The position numbers were made by a program, and so were the translations under genes. Positions 9,046 to 54,360 of a stretch of DNA of 55,452 bases are shown here, piece after piece. Under the pieces are notes generated by a model, which was given only the letters and a program-made list of their open reading frames with translations, was not told the origin of the DNA and did no database searches. Every line of letters begins with the position of its first letter. Position 1 is the stretch's first letter. Where the stretch lies: positions 1 through 55,452 of the IMG/VR virus record IMGVR_UViG_3300036859_000051. The stretch is one strand, 5' to 3'. Source of the stretch: a virus (taxonomy: Duplodnaviria; Caudoviricetes).

Positions 9046-9383
9046 TGACCGCCGTGTTCAGCGGGTTCGGTAGCGTTGACCGATTTTGCTTCGGCAACTT
9101 CCACCTTGTTGCCGATCATCGCGGTTGATCGCATCTTCAAAATCATACCGTTGATTTGGACGGCAAGATTAAGAACCACGACGGCGGCCAACATTCGACC
9201 GGGCGACAGGTTAAGCGTCGGCAACAGCGGTAAAACGTTGGGCGCCAATACCGCGACAAGCGCGATCACCGTTGTCACGGCGCCGACAATGTAGTTCCAA
9301 ATCTCTTTGGAGCGCCACCAACGTTTGACCGTGATCCCGCCAATCGTAATGGTGGAAACATCAACGGTATCTGACTTAGCCAT
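9042..9383 (-). CDS. Two-TM holin-like protein
   Basis: KRWWRSK followed by two hydrophobic helices; follows the endolysin. Confidence 0.65.
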   Translation of the reverse strand: MAKSDTVDVSTITIGGITVKRWWRSKEIWNYIVGAVTTVIALVAVLAPNVLPLLPTLNLSPGRMLAAVVVLNLAVQINGMILKMRSTAMIGNKVEVAEAKSVNATEPAEHGGQ

Positions 9384-10362
9384 TTTTCTTCCCCCGCCCA
9401 AATAGCGACGCAAGGAACGCTATCAGCGCTGCTAGAAGCCCGGCAAGTCCTGTCGGGGCGGATGCACCGGGAAGTGGCGCCGGGACCGGTGCGGGCGCCT
9501 CCACAGTCGGTTGTGGGGCTGCGGGAGCGGCATTAAGCGCGGCGAGTGTCTTTTCCCCTACAACGCCGTCCGCAATGAGCCCTGCGGCTTTCTGAAACTC
9601 AACGACGGCAAGTTCCGTCCCGTCGCCGAACTTCCCATCAAGCAAGCCGCCGACGTAGAACCCATGCGCTTGCAACTGTTGTTGCACCAAGAGAACATAT
9701 TGACCCTTCGAACCATTACGAAGCCAAGTTGAATTTTCCATCGGAACAACCTGCGAAGTTGGTGAGTGAAGAAAGTTCATCGCACGTTCGGTGAACTTCT
9801 GACGATCCGCCAATCCCAACGATCCGCCTTGGATTGCTTTTGTCAACCCCGGAAGGTTGTCGTTTATGACATACGCGGCGCATTTGTGGTCTTGCCAGTA
9901 GACGCAAAACGCTTCCAACGCGGTTGGGAATTTGCGGAGATAATCGGGGTGTTCGGCATACATCAAACCGACCGCCCGATAATTGTCGTAGAACGTCGTC
10001 TGTCCAAGCCCCGAGCCTCGATAGCGCCAACCGTCGCCGGGTTGCACATTCCCAAATCGCCCGCCGTACACTTTGTTCGCGAGTGCCTCCGGGTTGCGAA
10101 CAAATGGTTGTGCCGCTGCGTCGCTCGGAAACCGCGCGGGCCATATCCGCCGCAGTCGAGCGGTCGACGTGTAATATAGGTTTTCTTCCAACCGGTTGAA
10201 ACCCTGTGTCTCACACGCCGATTGTCCGAAGAACCAAGCGACTTCTTTGGGATCGGTGATCCCGTATTTCGTCAAGATCGATTGGTTATCGACAATGGCG
10301 CTAACGATGGCTCCGGATGCGCCCGGCGCGATGGCGAACAAGAATTGCGGAGTGATTTTCAT
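9376..10362 (-). CDS. Endolysin: GH19 domain + peptidoglycan-binding domain + C-terminal hydrophobic tail
   Basis: GQSACETQGF..LEENLYY, LANKVYG, GDGWRYRGSG; DGKFG.GTE.AV..FQ...GL.ADGVVG. Confidence 0.9.
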   Translation of the reverse strand: MKITPQFLFAIAPGASGAIVSAIVDNQSILTKYGITDPKEVAWFFGQSACETQGFNRLEENLYYTSTARLRRIWPARFPSDAAAQPFVRNPEALANKVYGGRFGNVQPGDGWRYRGSGLGQTTFYDNYRAVGLMYAEHPDYLRKFPTALEAFCVYWQDHKCAAYVINDNLPGLTKAIQGGSLGLADRQKFTERAMNFLHSPTSQVVPMENSTWLRNGSKGQYVLLVQQQLQAHGFYVGGLLDGKFGDGTELAVVEFQKAAGLIADGVVGEKTLAALNAAPAAPQPTVEAPAPVPAPLPGASAPTGLAGLLAALIAFLASLFGRGKKNG

Positions 10363-10369
10363 GATAGGT

Positions 10370-10753
10370 TTAACTCCAATATTTATCGTCGGTGTAATCC
10401 AACGGAATTGGATCAAGCTTCTCGATTTCGTTGGATCGGGAACGCAAGTGTTTAATTTCCGCCCATTGCGCCATAAGCGAAGTGTTCATTTGCTGCAACT
10501 CAGTCGGCCAACCTTTCGGATCGGCGCCATATAGCTGCATCGCTTCCGCATTCATCGCGAGAGCATTGCGTTGCTTGTAATCAGGCATGATCAATTCAAT
10601 TCGTCGCCCGGCTTCCGCTTTAACTTGTTCGAATTTAATTGAGTGCGGAGCGCCGTCGATGGCCTGCTGTGCGAGGATCGCCGCCTCTTCCTCCGGAGTG
10701 GCATCGCGTTCGTCCAGCTTACCAGTCATCGCATCAAATCTAGTGATCCTCAT
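10370..10753 (-). CDS. Tail fibre assembly/chaperone-like protein
   Basis: Follows the fibre; VKAEAGRRI..KQRN..DYTDDKYW pattern. Confidence 0.6.
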   Translation of the reverse strand: MRITRFDAMTGKLDERDATPEEEAAILAQQAIDGAPHSIKFEQVKAEAGRRIELIMPDYKQRNALAMNAEAMQLYGADPKGWPTELQQMNTSLMAQWAEIKHLRSRSNEIEKLDPIPLDYTDDKYWS

Positions 10754-17900: not shown

Positions 17901-18483
17901 GTTTAGGCACAATACGCATCCGCCCGAACAAGTCACCAACGACACCGAAGGGATCGGAAACGTTGCGAGCGTTCTCGATAAACGTCGTAGTGCCGTCACT
18001 TGTCTGCGATGCACCGTTAGACGTTGGCGCCGAGTTGCGAGGCGGGATTAGGGCGTTGACAAGCAACATGCCGCCAAGCCCGATAACCGCCTGCCCCGCT
18101 GCCGCGCCGAACGCCCCTGTAAGCCCCACGGCTCCCGCTAGAGGCCCGCCAAAAGCGAGCGCTGCCGCCGCCACGGCAATCAACAGAACGTTGCGCGCGA
18201 TATCCTTACCGCCGCCATCACCGCCCCTTGGCGGCACATAGGCGCGGATCGTGATTAGGGTTCCGGCCTTGGGGCGTACGACCGCCCATTTCGAGCGCGG
18301 AACATACCAATCATTGATGTAGATATGAGCCGCCCGACGCAACACCGGATCGGGTTGGACGTACTCGAAAATATGTTCAATTGTTTGATCGGGCGTTACC
18401 GTATAATCAACGGTCCGGACGCTAAGCGGATTGGTTGCCGCAACAACTCTAGCAACGGCTTTTGTGTCTAAAGTATCCAGCAT
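14938..18483 (-). CDS. Tail tip / host-specificity protein (lambda gpI+gpJ-like)
   Basis: 1181 aa; N-terminal ubiquitin-like and hydrophobic segment, TSNPA, GQYDIRIRR, FN3-like C-terminal part; synteny. Confidence 0.85.
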   Translation of the reverse strand: MLDTLDTKAVARVVAATNPLSVRTVDYTVTPDQTIEHIFEYVQPDPVLRRAAHIYINDWYVPRSKWAVVRPKAGTLITIRAYVPPRGGDGGGKDIARNVLLIAVAAAALAFGGPLAGAVGLTGAFGAAAGQAVIGLGGMLLVNALIPPRNSAPTSNGASQTSDGTTTFIENARNVSDPFGVVGDLFGRMRIVPKLAAAPYTDIVGDDQYLNLLLHCGVGPIEFDEASAKIAESLLSSFSDYEIEFREGYDTDDPISIFPDTVQQDNFQIRLNEADGYTTRTSGPNADRISVDVLFAEGLVTIAPDGTRSNRTVVAEFEYSVSGANDWQPIPDNGTKTFPSSWTDTDGLTFSQVSFTQRRTNAIRHGFTFAPSEGRGQYDIRIRRLTTDTSDENIRDALVWSALRAITNESPVRSPVPVALIALRIKATDQLNGVIDDFSIIGQRVCLDWDIDTTSWIMRATSNPASLYRYAYQSYSLQVPYPDAALDLTMLSYWAEFCNDHGFEFNQFRDFRSSFPDLLGDIASAGRAAQTNIDGKWSVVIDEPKSPVSHVTPRNSRGFTANKAFLDKPHAIRITFQNEEQDYRTDELRVYLDGYNEETATKFETANYPGVTSPALITKHARFAAAVAVHRPEQFTFVQDMERFVYKRGDVIKLTHDVIMIGIGPGGRFKSVELDIDGNAISAVVDTPLPMEASVNYGVSIRTVANVAVTAQIVTNEGVQTNIEFASPIPAIDAPSAGDLFGFGVLGSETDDALIIDIDPVGDLYDATITAVPYREVVYNIDASPIPAFDSKLTPIASVPDVVVESVRSDESVLTVGSGESLSVHIAVKVQPLTDQDGTLDIQIRPSTTGEPYSAAQVDSFIGNEAMIGDVRTGEYFDVRLRWIVPGRLPGDWSYISNHRVVGKSTNPDPLVNLTISTFGGQAFLRWDAPRELDVIFGGEVRFRHSADPTPSWSNSTSIGQAAQAKSLFATLPLRPGTYMCKVFDDAGNQSDVVMVDAAQASVLTYAPVDSIDEAPSFGGVKTNTTVDGIALKIGGAGQWDDIPDIDAEADIDAFGGTSEITVGEYEFEFGFDFGVVSKMRITLRILAGVFGVNDLIDSWSEDIDTRADFDGENTAEADCIVYVALTDDDPSGSPTWGAWQRFDSMEVHARGCKFKAVLTSYNHDFNIAVTELGVDAEEVV

Positions 18484-18856
18484 GACGCTTTGCCCAACCT
18501 ATCGTGTCCAAACGCTCGCATACCGTACCAATCCCGCGTCGACTGTGTATCATTTGACCGCGATCAATCACCAACGCCACATGTGATTGAAACCGGCTAA
18601 CGCTAAACAACGACACGTCACCAACCATCGGCTTAGTGGTTTCGATCCACTGTTGTTTTTCCGTGTCAACAACCGCGTTCAATTCAGCGAATGAGACACC
18701 CGGAACATAATCGTCGGACAACGTTGAAATCGTGGCGTCGAATAACTCACGATACGCGACAAACACCAAACCCCAACAATCCCAACCATCCCAATCGCGA
18801 CCGCATTCGAGGAACGGAACATCGATAGCTTTCGCGATGAATTCCTTTAACTGCAA
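18449..18856 (-). CDS. NlpC/P60 tail protein
   Basis: GRDWDGWDCWGLV, HVALV, MIHS. Confidence 0.9.
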   Translation of the reverse strand: MQLKEFIAKAIDVPFLECGRDWDGWDCWGLVFVAYRELFDATISTLSDDYVPGVSFAELNAVVDTEKQQWIETTKPMVGDVSLFSVSRFQSHVALVIDRGQMIHSRRGIGTVCERLDTIGWAKRHAGYFRHKSRC

Positions 18857-22353: not shown

Positions 22354-22730
22354 TGCGATTGTTCCGCCAACGCATCATCGATCTGTGATCTGATCCAAGT
22401 GACCGCGACAATCTTCGCAACGTTGGCAGGCGTGAACCCAAGTTGTTCACCGCCAAACGAACCTTTCCTCCCGTCCGCGTCGGCGGTCCATTCCCAACCG
22501 ACAATCGTTGACGAGATTAAACGTTCGGTATTTTCCTCAATTTCTTCGGCGGTGAGAACCTTGCCGCGTGCGCGTTTCTTCATCACTTGGTCTGTGACGT
22601 TGCGCTCAACAGCTTTGAATTTATCGTCATTGGTTCCGGCAAGCTCAATCGTCAAACCAATCAAGTTCCCCGTTCTAGGATGCTTGATCGGCAGTTTGAA
22701 CGTTACCGGCACAACTTCCGAGATATCCAT
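22338..22730 (-). CDS. Tail assembly chaperone (gpG-like)
   Basis: HP.TG...G..I...G, IVGW, FTP.N, W...QID; ends in a slippery T run. Confidence 0.85.
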   Translation of the reverse strand: MDISEVVPVTFKLPIKHPRTGNLIGLTIELAGTNDDKFKAVERNVTDQVMKKRARGKVLTAEEIEENTERLISSTIVGWEWTADADGRKGSFGGEQLGFTPANVAKIVAVTWIRSQIDDALAEQSHFFRS

Positions 22731-22747
22731 TTGACTTCCCTTTCATG

Positions 22748-22776
22748 AAAAAAAGGCGCGGGTTTCGCCGCGCCTT
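22748..22776 (-). terminator. Intrinsic terminator after the major tail gene
   Basis: GGCGCGG/CCGCGCC stem followed by T7 on the minus strand. Confidence 0.85.
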
Positions 22777-22801
22777 CCGGTCTAAACTTCGTCTTGCCGG
22801 A

Positions 22802-23275
22802 CTATGCGGCTTCAACCACGACTTCGGCTTGTGTGCATCCGAGCTTGAAAACTTCCAAGTCGAAATCCTCGCTACGTCCCATTGGGCGCGTCGGACCGCC
22901 GACAACAGCACGATTATAGATGCGCGTCGGTGTCGTACCGCCCGAAGGCAAATCATTGCGCTCGACTTTGAACGCCATGACACCACTGTTGGACGGGGCG
23001 CCGAAAGTGCGCAAGATATCCTGCCCGGCGTCGGCGGCATTGCGGAGAACTTCAACCTCAGGATCACCCGCGTTGGTGTTCCCTTTGCCCTTCTGAATTA
23101 CATCATCGGCCCAAGTGTCATATGACACGATATTGGTGTTTGCGCCGAGTTCACCGACGCTGCCGATCCCGCCGACTTCAACCCAAGTCAACGCAGCGAA
23201 CCCCGTCGCGTCCAACGCCGTCGGTTGCGCTGTGGCGCAAACGTACAATTTCGATTTCTTGTTGGTTCCGGACAT
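22802..23275 (-). CDS. Major tail tube protein
   Basis: LTWVEVG.I.SVGE.G, K.KG..NAG, DAGQ..L; synteny. Confidence 0.85.
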   Translation of the reverse strand: MSGTNKKSKLYVCATAQPTALDATGFAALTWVEVGGIGSVGELGANTNIVSYDTWADDVIQKGKGNTNAGDPEVEVLRNAADAGQDILRTFGAPSNSGVMAFKVERNDLPSGGTTPTRIYNRAVVGGPTRPMGRSEDFDLEVFKLGCTQAEVVVEAA

Positions 23276-25851: not shown

Positions 25852-26364
25852 ATGCGCAGTCTAGTAACCTGTTACCTCGCTATGTCGAGCATCGCTTTTG
25901 CTGCGGCCGAAAAGGCTAGCGGCGCCGCCAAGGCTCCCAACGCGCCCACGCCGATCAACACGCCCGCCGCCAATGCTTCGGCTCCCAATGCTTCGGCTCC
26001 GGCCGCACCGACGAACACCGTTGTTACGAAAATCCGTGCCGACGTTCCGTTGCCGCCCAAGAAATCAGGCGGTCGCGGCGGTCAGACGATCTACGATTTC
26101 GACAAGCTGGAAATCGGGCAGTCGTTCGGCGTCGTCGGCAAGACGATCAAGGGCATGGCGTCGACCGTTTCGAGCGCCAACAAGCGTTTCACCGAGGAAG
26201 TCAAGGATGCCGAGGGCAACGTCGTCATGATTGACGATCCCAAGAAGCCCGGCACCAAGAAGGCGGTCACCAAGCAGACCCGCAAGTTCATCTGTGGTAC
26301 GGTCACGCCGACCGAAGATGATCCGGCGACCGTTCGTGTTTGGCGCGTTCCGCTCGATTACTAA
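25852..26364 (+). CDS. Small basic putative DNA-binding protein with N-terminal leader (island 1)
   Basis: VPLP...GRG...YDFDKLEIGQSF, STVSSANKR, VRVWR; strongly biased codons; own terminator. Confidence 0.75.
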   Translation: MRSLVTCYLAMSSIAFAAAEKASGAAKAPNAPTPINTPAANASAPNASAPAAPTNTVVTKIRADVPLPPKKSGGRGGQTIYDFDKLEIGQSFGVVGKTIKGMASTVSSANKRFTEEVKDAEGNVVMIDDPKKPGTKKAVTKQTRKFICGTVTPTEDDPATVRVWRVPLDY

Positions 26365-30286: not shown

Positions 30287-31531
30287 TTAGCCAAGCAACA
30301 GCGCGATATGCTCACGCTTCGTCGCTTCAACGCCCCAAGCCGCCGCGACTTCATACCGAACCTTGCGGTATCCGGCATAAACGCGAACTTCGAACACCAA
30401 GCCGGAGCGCGGATCGACAAGCATCATGCTGTCAATTGCCGCGTCACCACCGCTCGGAAGGGCGGGCGGGCGGATGGCGAGTTGCATCGCATTCGGAGTG
30501 AACGCAACGTTCGCGTCGTAGCTGTTACCAACGGTGATTGCCGTGGTTGACGCAGGGATCGCGACACGCAAACCGGGTTCGGCAATCACGATGTTGCCGC
30601 CGTTCGAAACATCGGCGTCACCAGTGACCACAACGTATTTATTGGTATCACCAGCGAATGTGATCACGTCGCCCGCAACAATCGTTCCCGTACCGGCCGA
30701 TGCGAGCGCGATGGTCGTCGCACCAACAGCGAAACCAGCGTTTGTGGTCGTTGCCGACGCGCCGGTTCCCTTGGTATGGTGAACCGCCTGCGCGCTTTCC
30801 TTGATGTTGATACCGGAAAGGTTGATCAACGTGCCATCCGTCAAGGTCATTGACGTTCCGGCTTCGTTGGCTTTGGTCAACTGCGTCAGTGAACGCAGAT
30901 TGGCGCCCATCGACGTATTGCCGACCAACTGCCGCCCCGTACCCGGAGCGCCGTTGTCATCAAGGATTTTGCGGACCTGTGCGGCGTCGCCAACGCCGGG
31001 TGTCGCGCCGAACGGTGCGGTTCCGGCGATACCATAGGCACGCGACGCGTTTGCCGCAGCTTCGACGGCCAAATCACTTTCGATTTCGTTGACGATCCCG
31101 CGCAACGCTTGGGCAAACATGTCCGCCTGAACGGACAATGCGCCGGGACCGTTGGCGTTCAGTCCCTTTTCTTCCTCGCCGACGAAACCGAATTCGTAAG
31201 CGCGCGACTTGCTGATGGTCATTGTCCCATAGTCAACCGTCTGATCGGTTGGTTCGGGGATCGCCATCGCAGGCGTGATGTTGACGCCGTTCGCGGCGCG
31301 GGTCTTGTGATATTTGACCGCCTGCCCAACCGCCGCACGCTCGGCACCCGAGTTACGCGAAACGGAAGGGATGAAGCCGACAAGTTCACGAGACACCACG
31401 TCAAGACCAGCGTACAGATCGGGGATTAGCCCGGTCAACGTGTTGGCGTGGAAGGCGATGGGTTCGACGGCAAGCGCCGAAGTGGAAAGCGCCGCGAGCG
31501 TGATCGCGGCAAGTAGAGTGTGCGAGCGCAT
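30287..31531 (-). CDS. Major capsid protein (P22-coat-like) with N-terminal leader
   Basis: ANTLTGLIPDLY..LDVVSRELVGFIP, DP.SGL.FEV..Y, AAWGV; SD GGGG before ATG 31531; biased codons; own terminator. Confidence 0.9.
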   Translation of the reverse strand: MRSHTLLAAITLAALSTSALAVEPIAFHANTLTGLIPDLYAGLDVVSRELVGFIPSVSRNSGAERAAVGQAVKYHKTRAANGVNITPAMAIPEPTDQTVDYGTMTISKSRAYEFGFVGEEEKGLNANGPGALSVQADMFAQALRGIVNEIESDLAVEAAANASRAYGIAGTAPFGATPGVGDAAQVRKILDDNGAPGTGRQLVGNTSMGANLRSLTQLTKANEAGTSMTLTDGTLINLSGINIKESAQAVHHTKGTGASATTTNAGFAVGATTIALASAGTGTIVAGDVITFAGDTNKYVVVTGDADVSNGGNIVIAEPGLRVAIPASTTAITVGNSYDANVAFTPNAMQLAIRPPALPSGGDAAIDSMMLVDPRSGLVFEVRVYAGYRKVRYEVAAAWGVEATKREHIALLLG

Positions 31532-31672: not shown

Positions 31673-32611
31673 TTAACTCGCGAAGGCGAGCGCGGACCAA
31701 GTTGGTTGCGCTTTGGTGCCCACATTCATGTAAAGCACCTTACCAGTGATATCGGTATAGCGCGAACCCGGCCCGGCGAACCCTTCACCGGTCGCGACGG
31801 GATCACCATCGGTGTAATTGACCGGCGCACCCGATCCGAGAAGTTCGCAAACATCACCAACCGAGAAGCGCAATTCAGCCTTGTCAACGGTGAATGGTTC
31901 GCCATCGTCGGTGTAATGCGGCGAACCATCGTCTTTCAAATCCAAACCGTAATCAACACCCGATCCGGCATTGTTGTTGAGCATCCGGACGCCGAACGCA
32001 GACTTCGCGCGCGTGACGGATGATGGATCATCGCCATCGATCACAGCGGCAACGATGGCATCGGCACCAACCGATCCGTCCATGATAATTCCCATCAACG
32101 CGGCAGTCGGATAATCCGACGCGTGCGCAACGACGGAATACGCGCCGACCATACCGCCTAGATAGTTGCCTTCACCGGCAATTGCGTCACCCATGATGTT
32201 GCCCATCATCGGCGCAAGAAACTTTGGATCGGTGCCGTCGTTGGAACCTGCATCATCGGCAACGGTCAAATCGGCGGCAATGACCTGATAGCTTTCGCCG
32301 GTTCCATCATACTCAACTGCTTGTTCGCTCGATGCTGCAACAGCTTCGGAGCTTGTTGGAAAATCAACAGCCGCCTCGCTCCAATCGACCGATCCGTTTT
32401 CAACGACAATGTCAAACCGCTGACGCGATGAATATGGTCCGAACGTGGCGGTTTCACCGGCCGCGATACTTGTCGGGCGACCGGGTTCCTCACCCGATCC
32501 GGAACCGAGTGCCCACACCTTTGCAGCGGACACAGCGGCGGCAACAACGGTCAACTGCCGCGTTGCCTCCAATGTAACGACTTCATGCGAATTCTGTCGG
32601 ATTGTGGTCAT
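31673..32611 (-). CDS. Acidic putative head decoration/fibre protein
   Basis: Between scaffold and capsid genes; FGPY motif; GS.YTD.T...LY.N.GT...PTW tail; SD AAGGGG. Confidence 0.6.
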   Translation of the reverse strand: MTTIRQNSHEVVTLEATRQLTVVAAAVSAAKVWALGSGSGEEPGRPTSIAAGETATFGPYSSRQRFDIVVENGSVDWSEAAVDFPTSSEAVAASSEQAVEYDGTGESYQVIAADLTVADDAGSNDGTDPKFLAPMMGNIMGDAIAGEGNYLGGMVGAYSVVAHASDYPTAALMGIIMDGSVGADAIVAAVIDGDDPSSVTRAKSAFGVRMLNNNAGSGVDYGLDLKDDGSPHYTDDGEPFTVDKAELRFSVGDVCELLGSGAPVNYTDGDPVATGEGFAGPGSRYTDITGKVLYMNVGTKAQPTWSALAFAS

Positions 32612-32675
32612 GGGCCGCCCCTTTTGATGATCCATCCGGGTTAAGCGCTTCGTTTGAAAAAGTCAAACAAAGCTG

Positions 32676-33203: not shown

Positions 33204-33529
33204 TTAAACCCACCTTCGCGATGTTCGTTGAATATTGCGAACAACGAAAACTACCCACGTCCGAATGGGTGTTTGAACCCGGCATCCGTATTTACGTCCG
33301 CAAGGGTTGGCGTCCGCGACATGGCGATTATGTTCTAGCGAACATGGAAGCGACGACACCCGGCAAAGGTGCGTTGACCAAATTTCTCGATACATGGGAA
33401 CCTAAATACCAATTCAGTGTCGAGCAAATTCTAAACGAACGCTTGATCCCTTATTTCGAGCGTCGCGGCTACGTTTACGAAAGCGGCAAGTTCCCCGGCT
33501 CACTTTGTATGATCGGCCCGAAATCATGA
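33200..33529 (+). CDS. Small GNAT-fold-like protein (island 3)
   Basis: LANME...PGKG.LT..L and N.RL..YFERRGY resemble GNAT motifs A and B. Confidence 0.5.
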   Translation: MIKPTFAMFVEYCEQRKLPTSEWVFEPGIRIYVRKGWRPRHGDYVLANMEATTPGKGALTKFLDTWEPKYQFSVEQILNERLIPYFERRGYVYESGKFPGSLCMIGPKS

Positions 33530-33807
33530 ACCCCGATGCGCGATATCATTGGATCGAAGAATATTTAAGAAATCGATCACACAACGATTTTGTTGATGTT
33601 CTAAATCGCGACTTCGTTGACGATTACGCGCGAGCGACAGGCGTCCCGTTAATGGTGCAAATGTATGGCGCCGCGAAATGCCCAACACTCGGGCGTGACC
33701 TAGCACACATGGCGAAAAATAATCGCCTGCGTCGTTCGCGTAGCGGTATCGAAGGAATGGCGGGAATGGGGTTTCCGCGTTGGGTTTGGATTTACAGATT
33801 ACCATGA
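33526..33807 (+). CDS. Hypothetical protein, possible winged helix (island 3)
   Basis: ATGA overlap; L..M....L.R...W...Y.L ending. Confidence 0.65.
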   Translation: MNPDARYHWIEEYLRNRSHNDFVDVLNRDFVDDYARATGVPLMVQMYGAAKCPTLGRDLAHMAKNNRLRRSRSGIEGMAGMGFPRWVWIYRLP

Positions 33808-34025
33808 TGACCGGTTTCGCTGTTGTCGACATGCTCACTCGTCGCGTAATCATCGAATGCTTCACACTCGAAACGCTCGATCTGATCATGGCAGGTCGCA
33901 ATGCACAGTTCATCGCGATCATGACGGACGCCACGGTTTATAATCCGCCACTGAGTTTCAATGAAATCTTCATCGGTGTTAATTGGTTGAAGAATTTTCG
34001 GGTCTTGACAGATCGACCGCGTTGA
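33804..34025 (+). CDS. Hypothetical protein (island 3)
   Basis: ATGA overlap. Confidence 0.55.
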   Translation: MMTGFAVVDMLTRRVIIECFTLETLDLIMAGRNAQFIAIMTDATVYNPPLSFNEIFIGVNWLKNFRVLTDRPR

Positions 34026-36433: not shown

Positions 36434-37291
36434 TCAATCCTCGATAGTCGCTTTGCCTTGTGACATTTCCGAAGCGATCTTCGCGCGCTCCGGCGAATTC
36501 AGCGGCAAGGCGTCGAATTCGGCCCGCTTCATTACCCGCTTACCGCCCGGTCCAACACCGCCCTTGCCATCGTTGCCCGAGCCAGAATTGTTGGCGCCCT
36601 TCAAGACGGCATTCTTGTTCGGATACTCGTTGACGATGATTTCCATCGCTTCATCGAACGTCGCGACTTCCCCGGCACGCTGCGTTGAATAGAGCGGCCC
36701 GGAACCATCCGCCTTCATCGCAACGACACGATCATTTTCGATCTTGAAGCGATTGCCGAACGTCGCTTGAGCGATATCAGACGGGATGGTCAATTTCTCG
36801 GTGATGAATTTCGATCCGCCGAACGCCGACGCGACTAGGACGCCGTGAAGCTTGCTTTCGTATGTGTCGCCACGCTTCGTTGCATCAGCGAGCTTTGTTT
36901 CATACGACTTGGCGACTTCCGCGCGAACTTCGTCAACCTTGCCCGCGTCAATGAGCGTCTTGTCTTTCAGCTTGCCGACCGTAGCAATCGCTTCCGCCGC
37001 TGCCTTAGCGTCGGTAACGCCCGCGTCGGTGAATTCCTTAACCTTGGCTTCGGCCGTCTCGGCACGCTGCCTATGGCCCATCGCTTCGCCGTTGAGACGC
37101 GTAATCGTGTCACCTGCAACAGTCTGCTCGACACCGGCCGCCGTGATCCATATCGGATTGCCGTCCTTCGTTTCAAACTTCCCGTCAGCGTCGGTTTTCC
37201 ATTTGCCCTTGTCACCGTCGAAAAACCCGACACGAGAAATACGCATCGAACGCCCGATCCATGCGAGCGGAACCCCTTTGAACGTAATCAT
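36434..37291 (-). CDS. Capsid scaffolding protein (DUF6651-like)
   Basis: DG.P, I.RLNGEA..HR, LIDAG.V, F..SKFI..K, A.FDEA, GSG; follows the portal; SD GAGGT. Confidence 0.85.
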   Translation of the reverse strand: MITFKGVPLAWIGRSMRISRVGFFDGDKGKWKTDADGKFETKDGNPIWITAAGVEQTVAGDTITRLNGEAMGHRQRAETAEAKVKEFTDAGVTDAKAAAEAIATVGKLKDKTLIDAGKVDEVRAEVAKSYETKLADATKRGDTYESKLHGVLVASAFGGSKFITEKLTIPSDIAQATFGNRFKIENDRVVAMKADGSGPLYSTQRAGEVATFDEAMEIIVNEYPNKNAVLKGANNSGSGNDGKGGVGPGGKRVMKRAEFDALPLNSPERAKIASEMSQGKATIED

Positions 37292-37338
37292 ACCTCAGTC
37301 ACCTTTCATTGCGCGTCGCGCGCTTGCACCGGTTGGCG

Positions 37339-38910
37339 TCACGCCCCGGCATTCGGCAGAACAGGCGGAACCACCTGCTTAATGGGAAGCCCGGTTATTG
37401 GATCAACCTCCCCTTCATCTTCGGTCGGACCTTCGTCCAAAATTGCTTGTTCTTCATCGTCCGGATCAAAATCCGGTGAGAGGATATCCCGACGCTTTAG
37501 TTCCTTCCAAAGCGTCCGCTGCGACAAATCACCGGCCGCCCGAGCATCTTTCAGCGCCGTGACAGCAACCGCGCCGTTGTCACCGTCAACATCGAAATCG
37601 GTGAATACCTTCGTATTGATCTTTTCAACCATTTCGTCGCGCGGCAGACCGTACCACATGGCCGTAAGGATCAACGCGTTATCAAGCGCATCCTCCAAAC
37701 CAAATGCCCACATTTGGACAGCGGAATTTCCCTTCTTTCCGGCAACCGCAGCCGTGATGACCGTGATGTTCCCCGATTGCGCGGTGAGCGGATTGCGCCC
37801 TAGCTCGCGAAGCTGGTTGATTGTCTTTTCAACATCGCTTTGGAGGAACGTTAGCGACTGTGCGGACGGTTCGATCAACTCCCATGATCCGACATTGCCG
37901 TTGCCATCGGTAGGCGCGTAAAGGACGCGCATCGGCCCGACGTTGACCGGCTTGGTTGTTCCATCCGGGTTCTTATCGGGTTTGACACCGTTGCCCGTAA
38001 GCATCGGATAAGCGGTAAGCGTTTTGATCCATTTCAATCCGCTTTCCTGCAAATACAATTCGATTTGCAAATCCGCTGCGTCTCGCATTGGCGGATGAAC
38101 GAACCAAGTGCGACCATTGCGACGACCCGTCACAAACGCCACCATCGGAATTACACCGATGGTGAAAACACCTTGATCGATCTGATACCAAATGGTTGGT
38201 TGACCGACACCGGTCGGAAGCTTGCTTTTGTCTTGCTCCCATAGCTCCCAACGGGCGCCTAATTCGTCTCGGATCATGATCCGAATATGGTTGGGATCGC
38301 CCGGTTCCATGATCCGCATGTAAGTCAATTCTTCGTTCCCGGCAATCACGGCGGATTGCGCTTCAAGAACGTTGATTGCTTTGACATGCGACCAAAACGG
38401 CCGAATACCGGATTTCCGTTCTTCCTCTATCGAGCGCGGCGCGGTCGACACTGGAACTTTCGGATAGTCAACGAAAATCCAATCGATAGCGTCGTTGATC
38501 CCGTTGAAAAACGTCGCAGCGGCAAACACGGTGAGATTGTTGTTCGCGCCATCAACGTTGCCGATGAAGTCGGTCAACTGTTCAGGCAACGTGCCTAATG
38601 TCTCGTCTGTCGCGACTTCATTTTCGAAAGGTTTCGATGCGAGCCCTTCAACAACATCACGATAAATGTTGGTGAATTTGGTGAGCGACAAACGGAATTT
38701 GTATTCCGTATCCGGTTCGTTGGGAAATTTCGGCAGATATTTTTCGCCCGCGTCGCGGATCGCTTTGGCGCCACGAACGATGGTGTCAACTTGCTCCCAA
38801 TACGGGCACATAGCGGCATGATCTACAGACGATTTGTCTAGGTTCTCACGCTGCGTCGCGGACAGTGCCGTTTCGCCATCGAAGAACGCGACCCGCTCAA
38901 TTCGCGCCAT
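37339..38910 (-). CDS. Portal protein (DUF4055-like)
   Basis: YLPKFP.E....Y..RL....F.N, PP..D.A.L; follows TerL. Confidence 0.9.
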   Translation of the reverse strand: MARIERVAFFDGETALSATQRENLDKSSVDHAAMCPYWEQVDTIVRGAKAIRDAGEKYLPKFPNEPDTEYKFRLSLTKFTNIYRDVVEGLASKPFENEVATDETLGTLPEQLTDFIGNVDGANNNLTVFAAATFFNGINDAIDWIFVDYPKVPVSTAPRSIEEERKSGIRPFWSHVKAINVLEAQSAVIAGNEELTYMRIMEPGDPNHIRIMIRDELGARWELWEQDKSKLPTGVGQPTIWYQIDQGVFTIGVIPMVAFVTGRRNGRTWFVHPPMRDAADLQIELYLQESGLKWIKTLTAYPMLTGNGVKPDKNPDGTTKPVNVGPMRVLYAPTDGNGNVGSWELIEPSAQSLTFLQSDVEKTINQLRELGRNPLTAQSGNITVITAAVAGKKGNSAVQMWAFGLEDALDNALILTAMWYGLPRDEMVEKINTKVFTDFDVDGDNGAVAVTALKDARAAGDLSQRTLWKELKRRDILSPDFDPDDEEQAILDEGPTEDEGEVDPITGLPIKQVVPPVLPNAGA

Positions 38911-40684
38911 AACTGCCCATCACCGCAATCGCAAAATCAGTTGGTAACGGGAAATACGCCATAACAATAGCGTCCGCAAGATTAGGTGACTTTGTATTAT
39001 CCGGTTTTTTGTCAATAACCATTTTCAACGATCCGGACGAAAAACCACGCGTTGGTTGCGCCAACTCTGTTTTGACTTGGGCAATCAACGGTATCTTGCT
39101 ATCCAGCGAGATTAACATATCGACCGGATATCGAATGGTCGGATCGGTCACGCATTGATAAGTATGCCAACACCGCGTCCGCAGCGACCACCACGCTTGC
39201 GCCTTCAAGTTGTAGTAGAAATCTTTATTCAGCGGGCTTTCATCATCATCTTCAATCACTCGAAAGAAAGGATTGAGAACTTTAGCGCCCGCGTTCCAAG
39301 GAACTAGCTTTGGAAACTGTTCCCATTCCTTCAAATACTCCGGACGAAGGAAAGAACCATTCGGTGTCCGCTTCGGATCGAACAATTCTTCAACGAAGCG
39401 GTTCCACTCCGATTTGACCGTTGAGCCAACACCGATGCAATCATATTGGCACTCGATACCGGGATGCTCGCGCAACTCAGCAACCGTGTTGCGCGTCGTC
39501 ACACCAACGTCACGCGATCCCCATTCTTTACACACTCGGAGGATGATCGATTGACGTTTGGCGAGCGCGTTTCGGTCAATACCACCGTCCGCCACGTCAA
39601 GCGCCGCACCCCAATTGTTCGACTTCGCTTCATCGGCGAGCCAAGGCAGCTTGATATGTGCGTCAACAATGGCTTCGATCCATTCACCGGGAATGACCGT
39701 GTTCGCTACGGACGCGGCATAATTCCGATCCACTTCCTGCGCAAAGATATGTTCCAATCCTTCGTTGATGTATCGAGCTTTGCGCCGGTCATACCATTCT
39801 TGCGTTTTTTCCGGATGATCGCGCCAATCAATGATGAATTTGCGCGTCATACCCTTTTCGAACACCGCGTCAGGCGTCCAAGTCTGCGCGGCTTGGGCGC
39901 GTCGATAAAACACGTTGCCCATGCCGTTGACCGACGACACGTCGATTTGAACGTTCGTGTTGTCGCCTAGCGCCGCTTCGATCTTCTCCGGTCGTTCGTA
40001 ATGTGCACTCTCGTCTTTGAAGTAGATCGATTTACGACCGCCGCGCCCAATTTCATCACCACTTTCACCCGCGATGGTTGAGCCATTCGCCGGGTTCAAC
40101 AATTTCATGTATGTCGAGTGTTTTTTCGGATCGAAACCGACTGGTAAGAACACGTCGGGCAAACGCGAGACGAGTAATCTAATCTTTTCAAAAATGCTGT
40201 CGGGAATACCGAGCTTGTCAACCAAATCTTCTTTGCGCGATCCCCAACCAATCGCAATGTTGTCAGCAAACAACCACGCTGCAACAGACCATGCGCAGAA
40301 TTCCCATGTCACACCTACGTCACGGCATTTTTCAACAATGCCGTTTTCTTGATCGGTCATGCACCCATTGAGAAACGTCAACAGATCGGCTTGGCGTGGA
40401 AAGAAGATGAAGGGCATCCATTTCAACCCTTCCGTTTTTCGCGGATTGAACGTATCCATCCAATCCATGATGAATTCGCCATAATGTTCCGGCTTGGCGT
40501 AATACGCCTTTGCCCCGGCGAGCTTTATGGGATCGTTTCTTAGCTCAGCGAGCTTCCGCAAGCGCCACGCATAGACGGCACGGTAATCAGGCGGCCAATG
40601 CTCATGCGGCACCACGCGCGGGCGCCATGGCACCACGGAAAGCGATCTAGGACGACGTGCCCACGCGAACAGATCAATCGTCAC
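38897..40684 (-). CDS. terL: Terminase large subunit
   Basis: PRQ, EKCRDVG.TW, YFKDE, ALDVADGG.D, YD.IGVG, SPNLADA. Confidence 0.92.
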   Translation of the reverse strand: MTIDLFAWARRPRSLSVVPWRPRVVPHEHWPPDYRAVYAWRLRKLAELRNDPIKLAGAKAYYAKPEHYGEFIMDWMDTFNPRKTEGLKWMPFIFFPRQADLLTFLNGCMTDQENGIVEKCRDVGVTWEFCAWSVAAWLFADNIAIGWGSRKEDLVDKLGIPDSIFEKIRLLVSRLPDVFLPVGFDPKKHSTYMKLLNPANGSTIAGESGDEIGRGGRKSIYFKDESAHYERPEKIEAALGDNTNVQIDVSSVNGMGNVFYRRAQAAQTWTPDAVFEKGMTRKFIIDWRDHPEKTQEWYDRRKARYINEGLEHIFAQEVDRNYAASVANTVIPGEWIEAIVDAHIKLPWLADEAKSNNWGAALDVADGGIDRNALAKRQSIILRVCKEWGSRDVGVTTRNTVAELREHPGIECQYDCIGVGSTVKSEWNRFVEELFDPKRTPNGSFLRPEYLKEWEQFPKLVPWNAGAKVLNPFFRVIEDDDESPLNKDFYYNLKAQAWWSLRTRCWHTYQCVTDPTIRYPVDMLISLDSKIPLIAQVKTELAQPTRGFSSGSLKMVIDKKPDNTKSPNLADAIVMAYFPLPTDFAIAVMGSYGAN

Positions 40685-52254: not shown

Positions 52255-53914
52255 GTTGCGCGATCCAATTCATAATCTGCGCTCGCAACGTATCCATATC
52301 GAGCTTTGGCAATCCAAGCGCGGACGCCACGTCGACACCGCCCGTCGCATGATAGAAGCGTCGATATAACTCACTGTCGGTTTGACCAACCGCGCGACCA
52401 TGACCAGCCCATAAAGCGATAGCGTTGGCAAGAGATTGACGCGCCGCGATCCGCTCATGTGCCTTGCCCGCTTGGAACTTGCCGAGCCCATCCGAATTTG
52501 TCGCGGCTGCCACCTTGGCCCATATTTCTTCCGGTGTCTCGATGATCGATGCGCTACGAAGCTTGGCAAGCGTTTCAGCATCAAGCAACGTCAGATCGCC
52601 GTCAACCAACTTAATATCGCGACCGCCGCCCATAGGAACCGGCATATACCCACAGTATGGGCATTTGTGCTTTGTTGCTTCGTATTGCTTGACGCACTTG
52701 ACGCACGTTTTTAGCGGCATGTCGTCCGGATCAAACTCACGTTTCGCCCGACGCTCACGATTGGCAAGTGACCAAACACGTGGTTTATCCGGATAGCCGA
52801 ACCGATGCGAATTGCCGACGTGATCGATTACCAATCCCGCGCGTTTACCCGGCATTGGTCGCAACACGCGTCCGAACTGTTGCAGGTAAACGCCTAATGA
52901 CGCGGTTGGTCGCGCCATGCTAACCACATATAGACCGGGTAAATCGAACCCCTCACCGAACAAATCGACGTTCACGAGTTGCCAGAGTTGCCCGGCTCTA
53001 AAACGACGGACGTATTCGGATCGCAGGGCATCCGGTGTCTTGCCGGTGACGACAACAGCGGGAATGCCGTACTGTTGAAATTTGATGGCAATTTCGGTTG
53101 CCGTGTCAACGTCGGTCGCGAAGGTAATTCCTGACTTGCCATATGCGAACCGAATGTAATGCTCGACAACGTCACCGACGATATGAGAGTTTTGCGACGC
53201 CTCGCGCAATTGCTTTGGTGAGAAATCGCCACTGTCGGTGATCTTCAACGCTGCAACATCAAGATCACTTTCGGGTTGCGCTATCTCATATTCGGATAGT
53301 GCCCCCATGTTGATCAAATCACGCGTTGACGGGCCAATGACCATCTTTCCGAACACGCCCGATCCGCCGTTCGCTTTGTCACCGATCCCGTTGCCGTCCG
53401 CTCGATTAGGTGTCGCGGTCACACCGAGGCCGAACGCGTTGGGGAACATCGAAACGACGTAACCCCATTTGTTATTTGTCAAGACGTGGTGCGCTTCATC
53501 TATCGTCCATCGCTTGACTTGCTTTGCCCAATCGGCTAACGCGTCATGCCGGGATTTGAGCGTATCCACGCCCGCGACGGCGGTCGACGCCGTAGGATCA
53601 ACGAAAGAGCGCCCGAACTCGCGACGATGCTCCGCAGCGATGAAACCGATCACGTCTTTTGGTGCTATGATGCGATGGAACACGCCGAACCGCGCGACGT
53701 GTAATGACATTTGCGATACCAACTCTTGCCGGTGAGCTATGACGACGTTTTGTCCCGGTGTGGTCGCATCGTCCGCCGCATGTTGACCGACAATGACACT
53801 CTTGCCGCCACCTGTAGGAACCACGTCGACCACATGTCGAATACCCGATTGCCAAGCAGCATAATTCGCCGCGTGAACTTCGCGTTGATAGGGGCGAAGC
53901 TCCGGACGCGTCAT
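52244..53914 (-). CDS. SF2 DEAH helicase with C-terminal zinc finger
   Basis: LRPYQ, PTGGGKS, DEAHH, TATP, EGFD.P, QQFGRVLR, CVKC..CPYC. Confidence 0.92.
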   Translation of the reverse strand: MTRPELRPYQREVHAANYAAWQSGIRHVVDVVPTGGGKSVIVGQHAADDATTPGQNVVIAHRQELVSQMSLHVARFGVFHRIIAPKDVIGFIAAEHRREFGRSFVDPTASTAVAGVDTLKSRHDALADWAKQVKRWTIDEAHHVLTNNKWGYVVSMFPNAFGLGVTATPNRADGNGIGDKANGGSGVFGKMVIGPSTRDLINMGALSEYEIAQPESDLDVAALKITDSGDFSPKQLREASQNSHIVGDVVEHYIRFAYGKSGITFATDVDTATEIAIKFQQYGIPAVVVTGKTPDALRSEYVRRFRAGQLWQLVNVDLFGEGFDLPGLYVVSMARPTASLGVYLQQFGRVLRPMPGKRAGLVIDHVGNSHRFGYPDKPRVWSLANRERRAKREFDPDDMPLKTCVKCVKQYEATKHKCPYCGYMPVPMGGGRDIKLVDGDLTLLDAETLAKLRSASIIETPEEIWAKVAAATNSDGLGKFQAGKAHERIAARQSLANAIALWAGHGRAVGQTDSELYRRFYHATGGVDVASALGLPKLDMDTLRAQIMNWIAQREN

Positions 53915-54360
53915 TTCTTCCGCTTCATGCTCAACGGTACGATCACACCGACCGTGTAAAAGCCATTCGTGGCGGGTCCGATGATCCCGGTGTTGTCTGC
54001 GCTCGGATCGGCGACGACTTCACCGTTCAACACGATAACCGCGTGGTTATTGCCGCGTCGCGACAAACCACATAGTACGATATACGTGTCTCGATACATG
54101 AACTTAATGCTTTCGAGCATCCAACGAACAGTTGGAACCGCCTTGCCATTAAAATGCGTTTCGGACCAAGCCAAACCGCGCAAGGCTAAAAAAGTGTCGA
54201 CCGCCGTCCAACTCGCTTGAATATCACGATTTCCAGTTTCAAAAAAATGCGGAACATCGGTAATCGGTAAATCAAGTAGCGACGCCATCACCGCACGAAA
54301 ACAATCCCCATACGTTCCGTTTGCCGGATCATGTGCGACGGTTGTTTTGATTGGCGTCAT
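53911..54360 (-). CDS. Putative papain/C39-like cysteine peptidase
   Basis: GDC..A..ASLL, NHAVIV, V.DP (possible Cys-His-Asp triad). Confidence 0.5.
   Translation of the reverse strand: MTPIKTTVAHDPANGTYGDCFRAVMASLLDLPITDVPHFFETGNRDIQASWTAVDTFLALRGLAWSETHFNGKAVPTVRWMLESIKFMYRDTYIVLCGLSRRGNNHAVIVLNGEVVADPSADNTGIIGPATNGFYTVGVIVPLSMKRKK

Follow-up and report, generated by a model that had tools for sequence, protein, structure and literature searches.

Portal, scaffold and capsid proteins of a phage clade share an N-terminal leader that looks like a removable assembly tag

Few self-assembling proteins have been studied as closely as those that make up the heads and tails of tailed phages. Two such proteins raise a question in the virus sequence IMGVR_UViG_3300036859_000051, a stretch of 55,452 nucleotides that is referred to here, as a whole, as the window. 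Its portal and its scaffold carry the same 11-residue stretch, RIERVAFFDGE in the former and RISRVGFFDGD in the latter, with 8 of the 11 residues identical. What is such a stretch doing on both proteins? Judging from its pattern among homologs, it resembles a cleavable assembly tag, of a type so far undescribed in phages of Gram-negative bacteria.

In the portal ORF (37339-38910, minus strand), the stretch directly follows the initial M-A, while in the scaffold ORF (36434-37291, minus strand) it occupies residues 17-27. The initial annotation had reported the eight shared residues, which were found again on both ORFs. It had also placed the scaffold copy near the N-terminus; this is correct for residues 17-27, though the copy does not lie at the very N-terminus. 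Five of the eight shared residues use different codons (CGA/CGT, CGG/CGT, TTC/TTT, GAT/GAC and GGC/GGT), the same pairs as noted earlier. When the N-terminal 60 residues of every ORF of at least 110 amino acids (99 in total) were compared without supervision, the portal-scaffold pair scored 42 and was topped only by two paralogous fibre-like genes. For internal stretches, which served as the null, the 99.9th percentile was 31.7 and the highest score 36. The likeness exceeds chance. A tight motif, [IV][AG]F[FH][DA], matched three times in the six-frame ORFs of at least 60 amino acids, at the N-termini of portal, scaffold and capsid, a count that is not independent, as the motif was derived from those three proteins themselves. 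The features are collected in Table 1.

Table 1. Leaders, the proteins that carry them and a candidate peptidase in the window
Feature	Position	Strand	Description
Portal leader	38872..38910	-	Codons 1-13; M-A plus the 11-residue shared stretch; upstream of the PHROG portal match
Portal remainder	37339..38871	-	DUF4055, phrog_145
Scaffold leader	37211..37291	-	Codons 1-27; residues 1-15 conserved, shared stretch at 37211-37243
Scaffold remainder	36434..37210	-	DUF6651, phrog_784 / phrog_206 head scaffolding protein
Capsid leader	31445..31531	-	29 codons; basic start, hydrophobic middle (2.58), end I-A-F-H-A before N-T-L-T
Major capsid remainder	30287..31444	-	phrog_283
Leader-like part of the DUF7303 gene	25852..25905	+	First 18 codons, end I-A-F-A-A
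Candidate leader peptidase (weak)	53911..54360	-	149 amino acids; predicted C39-like papain fold

The leaders of portal and capsid must be translated, because neither gene has an alternative start before its conserved core. The portal frame opens three codons upstream of the ATG and its next start, M34, falls within the core; in the capsid, no start codon occurs between 31531 and the core. The concern that the true starts might lie downstream of the motif is thus dispelled for these two proteins. For the scaffold, the start codon is most likely the one at 37291 rather than the second ATG (37246), since residues 1-15 are retained in the homologs P0122, P0124, P0131, P0132, P0163 and P0174, three of which are without Met at the second position. 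The second ATG had been suggested by the match to phage RHph_X2_24 and was set aside on account of these same conserved residues.

The leaders lie outside the recognised domains. The PHROG portal match begins at residue 20, and the PHROG major head match likewise starts downstream of the capsid leader. The portal matches Pfam DUF4055 with 61.2 bits (curated cut-off 25) and the scaffold matches DUF6651 with 100.7 bits (cut-off 27). In the AlphaFold2 model of the scaffold, the first three 10-residue blocks have pLDDT values of 53, 57 and 59 and the fold begins at about residue 30; the scaffold leader is predicted to be disordered. Its hydropathy is 1.38. In the DUF7303 gene (25852-26364, plus strand), the leader-like start is followed by an Ala/Pro-rich linker and a basic domain.

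Is the leader a peculiarity of this one phage? Among the best homologs of each protein, a looser form of the motif stands before the core in 81 of 120 portals, 91 of 120 scaffolds and 108 of 120 capsids, the calls resting on regular expressions written by the analyst and the related phages being non-independent samples. The 13 protein pairs were matched solely by equal length of the parent sequence. A strict form, A[FY][DANE][NGSPT], lies upstream of the core in 54, 54 and 65 of the same 120 each, and elsewhere in these portals, scaffolds and capsids it occurs 10 times in 49,082, 31 times in 18,293 and 5 times in 34,623 residues. The common ending reads small-[FY]-[D/A/N/E]-[N/G/S/P], so that the motif first proposed, [IV][AG]F[FHA][DA], was too tight. 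The place before the conserved N/G/S is taken by Asp, Glu or Asn in most portals and scaffolds (D in 41% of portals, D in 56% and E in 14% of scaffolds) and by Ala in 77% of capsids, where the junction is mostly A-Y-A followed by N. A helix-prone stretch lies some 8-10 residues upstream of the junction, and portals have a linker of variable length, about 17-47 residues, between leader and core. Two portal homologs, P0008 and P0009, carry the same kind of leader as the window.

From these alignments, the leader appears as an addition, absent from the Pfam and PHROG cores and from leaderless relatives. The latter (CGphi29, HK639, L004, L005 and others) start directly after the junction: their scaffolds begin at the W-K that follows the motif and their capsids at M-[A/P/S]-N-T-L-T. 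It was also considered that the scaffold stretch might correspond to the M-K-L-K start of leaderless DUF6651 proteins. In a wider set, the W-K downstream of the motif proved to be the counterpart of this M-K-L-K, and the scaffold leader is therefore read as an addition. By sequence, the leader-bearing clade comprises the window phage, the Rhizobium phages P106B and RHph_X2_24 and many (hundreds of) uncultured relatives. In this clade, the leader is found on the capsid, the scaffold and usually the portal, and in relatives on the tail tube (P106B, where this protein is P106B_28, and L016-L019, L022, L032, L036 and G121) and the DUF7303 protein (6 of 19 relatives, by eye); in L028, the DUF7303 leader has the same ending as that phage's portal leader. 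The initial annotation's view of a head-protein leader thus stands for portal, scaffold and capsid and is too narrow for the other two. A reading free of gene calls in 55 phages gave the leader on both portal and scaffold in 24, on neither in 20, on the scaffold alone in 10 and on the portal alone in 1. Of 76 prophage loci in reference genomes, 39 had a readable capsid N-terminus, of which 1 (L153) bears the leader, 8 another long extension and about 30 none. A scan of viral contigs with the portal protein alone returned two loci, both leaderless, and G121 is a clade member whose head module is cut off.

Portal and scaffold genes are neighbours and 23 of the 33 bases of the stretch agree, which could be put down to chance, to recent duplication or gene conversion of adjacent DNA, to a shared RNA element or to misplaced starts. 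Such readings are scarcely credible. The leaders are conserved in hundreds of homologs, the starts have no alternatives as described above, and portal and scaffold share 29 of 64 codons, with 28.3 expected. Since there is no excess of shared codons, gene conversion and an RNA element are ruled out, and the leaders appear to be maintained through selection on the protein rather than on the DNA, as had been argued from the synonymous differences. When portal and scaffold leaders were re-paired between phages, 0 of 100,000 re-pairings reached the within-phage likeness, also with the core omitted. As far as sequence can show, all four readings are refuted. The co-variation of capsid and scaffold leaders is weak, the observed score being reached by 3,305 and 1,029 of 100,000 re-pairings.

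A comparable arrangement is known from staphylococcal phages. To our knowledge, these phages and the protease Prp are the only documented case of shared clip-off leaders without a classical head protease. Prp is a host cysteine protease that also trims ribosomal protein L27, a protein that was linked to 80alpha by scanning the host proteome for the motif. In phage 80alpha, the leaders of capsid and scaffold are cut by Prp, and the same motif is present on a tail protein of phi13 (PMC5744158). The L27-type cut motif is given as (D/N)LQ(F/L)F followed by A (PMC9405229). Here, as there, a short add-on leader stands on unrelated virion proteins, among them capsid and scaffold and, in relatives, a tail protein (here the tail tube), with an aromatic residue at the putative cut and no recognisable phage head protease. 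The differences are that the junction is of another type, that the portal is tagged too, and that the leaders are longer and often hydrophobic, with removal being a prediction. Conservation in homologs, the position upstream of the cores and this resemblance uphold the earlier idea of an 80alpha-like leader, though not the narrow motif attached to it.

It is proposed that the leader is, on balance, probably a removable assembly tag of the 80alpha kind, with another motif and with an enzyme that is neither Prp nor a known head protease. The clade adds to its virion proteins a leader whose start is basic, whose middle is hydrophobic to a varying degree and whose end is the conserved junction; a single factor, most likely a protease, would recognise this junction on all of them. 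The cut would fall after the aromatic residue or one residue later. The leader lengths fit such cleavage, because the residues past the cut site would match the N-termini of leaderless capsids and tail tubes. The added resemblance between portal and scaffold ahead of the junction suggests a further role in docking: the portal would copy the scaffold's tag, so that one and the same partner could bind both while the procapsid is assembled.

Alternatively, the flexible leader may never be cut. The portal would then mimic the scaffold's N-terminus, both would bind a phage-specific site, and the portal would be built into the scaffold-nucleated procapsid. The predicted disorder of the leader and the variable portal linker suit this reading, as does the strong co-variation of portal with scaffold against the weak one of capsid with scaffold, which fits a portal-scaffold-specific role better than one common enzyme. 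In 80alpha, moreover, the scaffold leader is required for assembly and its cleavage is dispensable (PMC5744158), so an assembly tag may work uncut. An uncut leader nevertheless leaves unexplained why the tail-tube and DUF7303 proteins bear it and why the junction falls exactly where leaderless homologs start, and a hydrophobic tail of 25 residues on each capsid or tube subunit would seem costly. This reading is possible, though unlikely. A third reading takes the leaders for true Sec-type signal peptides, which would target the inner membrane and be cut by host signal peptidase I. The start is basic in 56 of 65, 82 of 91 and 97 of 106 leaders, and on a crude hydropathy scale a hydrophobic window of at least 2.0 occurs in 19, 49 and 45 of them, as compared with 2, 0 and 0 of 120 control stretches. 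The small residues at many junctions, the common A-Y-A of capsids before N and the classic layout of the window's capsid leader agree with it. However, the portal leader of the window lacks a hydrophobic stretch (maximum 8-residue hydropathy 0.33), and most portal and scaffold junctions have Asp or Glu before the putative cut, which signal peptidase I rejects. Phage heads are, besides, built and filled in the cytoplasm. Secretion is accordingly a very improbable destination.

Other shared or trimmed N-termini resemble the removable tag proposed here in part. The capsid targeting sequence of T4 internal proteins is removed by the prohead protease gp21; it is likewise a short shared N-terminal tag that acts in head assembly and is then clipped. 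It differs in its junction and in tagging cargo, whereas here portal, coat and tail tube are concerned, and it needs a prohead protease, of which none was recognised here in the S78, S49 and ClpP scans (the S77 control being silent). The portals of lambda and P2 also lose a short N-terminal piece during head maturation, but to their own phage-encoded proteases, and we know of no leader described for them as shared with scaffold and tail tube.

Which enzyme, then, might remove the leader? As stated initially, no prohead protease is recognisable: profiles of Prp, S78, S49, ClpP, S26 and C39 had no match in six-frame scans of the window, and Pfam and PHROG scans of 33 window ORFs gave no known head protease; for the S77 profile (T4 gp21), the control was silent. 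Known head proteases of these families and signal peptidase were set aside as products of the window. Prp (PF04327) was found neither in the window nor in any of 81 genomes of Hyphomicrobiales, the order of Phyllobacterium, with positive controls in Bacillus, Thermotoga and Lactococcus, and on this sample it was rejected as the leader enzyme. The earlier supposition of a host group not known to use Prp agrees with these genomes from the presumed host order.

A candidate is the product of 53911-54360, singled out earlier. By its model (pLDDT 92.7, pTM 0.87), it has a papain-like C39-type fold, in which a helix begins at Cys20 and His106 and Asp118 lie on the following strands; Cys20, His106 and Asp/Asn118-Pro119 are invariant across 12 sequences. 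Its best structural matches, ComA (Z 8.8, rmsd 3.0, 113 residues aligned), PCAT1 (8.2) and LahT150 (8.1), are peptidase domains that act on bacteriocin leaders, although unmatched models commonly reach a best Z of about 8 as well. The best Foldseek E was 0.016; no match was obtained in Pfam at E 0.05 or in NCBIfam, and a six-frame PF03412 scan was negative at E 0.1. Like the helix-prone phage leaders, the Cys-His-Asp/Asn set recalls the double-glycine system, but there is no ABC transporter, and Gly-Gly is absent from the portal and capsid junction logos, appearing after the motif in some scaffolds. Of 15 leader-bearing records, 12 have a homolog (in P106B, P106B_57), as does 1 of 15 leaderless ones; the three misses are one contig cut at the locus and two records 44-70% complete. 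Since a close homolog of a helicase is distributed in the same way, the association may reflect shared ancestry, from which the leader link cannot be separated. The peptidase gene sits within the replication module. Homologs also occur in G108, G114 and G116, phages with other head types, where an unsupervised search for shared N-termini gave nothing above the null. A complex predicted for the peptidase with scaffold residues 1-50 scored 0.33, a weak value (best of three controls 0.00). This mark was attained by 58 of 80 complexes of known structure, as it was by 2 of 110 mismatched pairs; scores of 0.60 or below comprised 7 of those 80 and both mismatched pairs. At least 28% of contacts agreed between runs, with a partner pLDDT of at least 54, and since C39-leader complexes have already been solved, the prediction may reflect memorised structures. 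That this peptidase removes the leaders, as a special case of the removable tag, is a tentative and rather unlikely proposal. Doubtful as a whole is the fuller picture, in which five or more unrelated virion families (coat, scaffold, portal, tail tube and DUF7303) would share a signal-peptide-like tag clipped by it, with the portal copying the scaffold's version so as to be incorporated into the head. If true, a stand-alone enzyme of a kind known from bacteriocin leaders, and so far not for virus building, would serve a type of virion maturation without precedent in phage biology.

Searches among solved structures by sequence gave nothing for capsid or scaffold and two weak portal matches (E 0.0025), and NCBIfam assigned no family to the five proteins searched. 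In literature searches, which covered subscription journals thinly, no papers were found on DUF6651; by titles, none on vB_RglS_P106B or Rigallicvirus concerned virion proteins and the 80alpha/Prp work alone was relevant to such leaders. A removable tag would extend the 80alpha-like logic to phages infecting Gram-negative soil bacteria, with a different motif, more proteins and no known enzyme. It would also bear on portal recruitment into the procapsid, an old open question, as the portal is among the tagged proteins. The Rhizobium phages P106B (on R. gallicum) and RHph_X2_24 are cultured members, which makes the system directly testable. For annotation, the leaders matter in two ways: secretion predictors would call such coat and tail proteins exported, and start callers would trim the leaders.

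The portal protein of the window starts with M-A-RIERVAFFDGE, and the scaffold carries RISRVGFFDGD at residues 17-27. The 8/11 identity claimed in the initial annotation was confirmed, and so were the different codons at five of the eight common residues. All 99 long ORFs were compared in an unsupervised manner over their first 60 residues; this pair scored 42 and exceeded every control comparison between internal stretches (maximum 36). The family-profile matches begin after the shared stretch, from residue 20 in the portal and residue 30 in the scaffold. A later portal start cannot remove the stretch, because the next start codon, M34, sits inside the conserved core. The scaffold ORF has two ATGs; the first, at 37291, is likely the translation start, since its 15 extra residues are kept in six homologs, three of which lack Met where the second ATG lies. 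AlphaFold2 modelled the scaffold leader with low confidence (pLDDT 53-59) and detached from the fold, which begins at about residue 30.

The window is a complete virus record of 55,452 bases with terminal repeats. Its closest cultured relatives are the Rhizobium phages RHph_X2_24 (portal 50% identity) and vB_RglS_P106B (47%), of the genus Rigallicvirus, and the Salicola phage CGphi29 is a more distant one. Between the scaffold and major capsid genes lies a block of small plus-strand genes. Two minus-strand ORFs also found there matched no Pfam or PHROG family, and at their position P106B and RHph_X2_24 carry only small reversed genes.

Features of the window discussed in the text
Feature	Position	Strand	Remarks
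Large terminase	38897-40684	-	
Portal	37339-38910	-	DUF4055, phrog_145
Scaffold	36434-37291	-	DUF6651, phrog_784 and phrog_206 'head scaffolding protein'
ORF between scaffold and capsid genes	33524-33934	-	136 aa
ORF between scaffold and capsid genes	31673-32635	-	320 aa
Major capsid	30287-31531	-	phrog_283
DUF7303 protein	25852-26364	+	
Tail-tube homolog	22802-23275	-	157 aa
NlpC/P60 domain protein	18449-18856	-	among tail genes
Endolysin-like protein	9376-10416	-	peptidoglycan-binding domain
C39-like peptidase	53911-54360	-	

Judged from the homologous sequences, the leader is a family-wide feature of portal, scaffold and capsid. Among the best 120 homologs of each protein passing the E-value limits (of 950 portals, 221 scaffolds and 7,988 capsids), the loose junction pattern was present in 81, 91 and 108, and the strict one in 54, 54 and 65, respectively. 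Elsewhere in the same sequences, the strict pattern is 60 to 100 times rarer for portal and capsid and about 7 times rarer for scaffold. The common junctions are P-[R/V]-A-[F/Y]-[D/A]-[N/S]-G in portals, [A/P/R]-[R/A/V]-A-[F/Y]-[D/E/N]-[N/P/G]-G-K in scaffolds and A-Y-[A/D]-N-T-L in capsids. Leaderless homologs open just past this junction, the capsids with M-[A/P/S]-N-T-L-T and the scaffolds with M-(P)-W-K or M-K-L-K. A check free of gene calls covered 80 viral contigs around capsid homologs, with frames read from the preceding stop codon. With 13 further portal-scaffold protein pairs, matched by equal length of the source sequence, 55 phages were obtained; the motif occurs on both proteins in 24, on neither in 20, on the scaffold only in 10 and on the portal only in one. 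Most leaders start basic, with K/R within the first eight residues (56/65 portal, 82/91 scaffold and 97/106 capsid leaders), and about half contain a hydrophobic stretch of signal-peptide strength. In the window, the capsid leader reaches this strength (hydropathy 2.58) and the portal leader does not (0.33). A different capsid extension of 55-60 residues, with a membrane-span-like stretch and ending G-[A]-N-T-L-T, was seen in prophage loci (L098, L106, L117, L118, L120, L138, L154, L160), mostly beta-proteobacterial and verrucomicrobial, and in viral contigs (L046, L057, L058).

Within a phage, the portal and scaffold leaders resemble each other closely. Over 24 phages, the mean BLOSUM62 score was 20.25 vs 4.93 (sd 1.94) after re-pairing, and 11.0 vs -1.55 when the core was excluded; in 100,000 re-pairings the observed score was never reached. 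Recent copying or an RNA signal could be ruled out as the source of this likeness, as in the 13 phages with DNA the same codon was used at 29 of 64 identical residues, where the codon usage of these genes would give 28.3. Because re-pairings never reach the observed likeness and codon sharing equals expectation, selection at the protein level, for which the initial annotation had argued, maintains it. The capsid and scaffold leaders co-vary weakly (observed values reached by 3,305 and 1,029 of 100,000 re-pairings; 21 phages). That portal and scaffold are so strongly coupled suggests an additional role in assembly for the upstream part of the tag, in which the portal mimics the scaffold.

The leader has the hallmarks of a processing leader, and its cleavage is predicted: it is N-terminal, the fold does not need it, each protein gains or loses it separately, and its conserved residues lie at the boundary to the mature part. 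A cut beside the aromatic residue would leave proteins that match the leaderless forms in length, with one residue ahead of N-T-L-T in the capsid and eight ahead of L-Y-V-C-A-T in the tail tube. The closest precedent is Staphylococcus phage 80alpha, in which host Prp cuts the capsid and scaffold leaders after Phe and the scaffold leader is essential for assembly while cleavage is not; a phi13 tail protein is headed by the same motif (PMC5744158). The L27-type Prp motif, as given in PMC9405229, differs from the junction described here, and Prp was found neither in the window nor in the 81 genomes sampled from Hyphomicrobiales, the order to which relatives of the known hosts belong. By motif and gene content, therefore, the window's system is not of the 80alpha/Prp family. 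No published description of these leaders was found in the literature searched.

As for the enzyme, searches of the window for HK97-type, lambda-type and ClpP-type proteases and signal peptidase found none, in line with the earlier view that no prohead protease is recognisable. The C39-like peptidase, already named as a candidate in the initial annotation, seems an improbable remover of the leaders. Its confident structure model matches C39 leader-peptidase domains best, 12 sequences all keep Cys20, His106 and Asp/Asn118, and homologs occur in 12/15 leader-bearing vs 1/15 leaderless records; the neighbouring helicase has the same distribution. Complex prediction gave slight support (0.33 vs 0.00 for controls). 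Of 64 further homologs, about half are in other genomic contexts; this capsid type was present in only 8 of 46 additional records; and three complete outsiders with a homolog (G108, G114, G116) share no N-terminal leaders. The peptidase family is widely distributed among uncultured phages whose head types are unrelated (L184-L247 and the same three outsiders), so removing leaders is probably not its function, or not its only one. Its carriers include a 67.7-kb phage that encodes a 4,468-aa protein and a lambda-like prophage that has an S49-type protease of its own. Another carrier, the 77.7-kb phage G111, has two adjacent genes (56798-57676 and 57700-58554, loci L262), possibly paralogs, whose products are identical over their first 14 residues; this stretch ends D-L-Q-L-F, in agreement with the L27/Prp cleavage motif.

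The leader is also present on other proteins. Two further P106B proteins, the putative tail-tube protein (P106B_28) and a small one encoded on the opposite strand (P106B_17), share the leader of that phage's portal and scaffold. A rule-based scan gave 61 matches in 3,616 ORFs vs 18 with shuffled N-termini, and found tail-tube leaders ending A-F-A-N in loci L016, L017/L018, L019, L022, L032 and L036; the peptidase-homolog record G121 has a tail-tube leader too. The window's tail-tube homolog has no leader; it is shorter than the 263-aa P106B_28 and is continued by an overlapping frame (22675-23067), so the gene may contain a frameshift or encode a shorter protein. P106B_17 belongs to the DUF7303 family, in which the leader is present in the window copy and, as judged by eye, in 6/19 relatives. 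The window gene lies within the head-tail module, on the opposite strand, and encodes the leader, an Ala/Pro-rich linker and a basic conserved domain; its product may be packaged as an internal protein or secreted.
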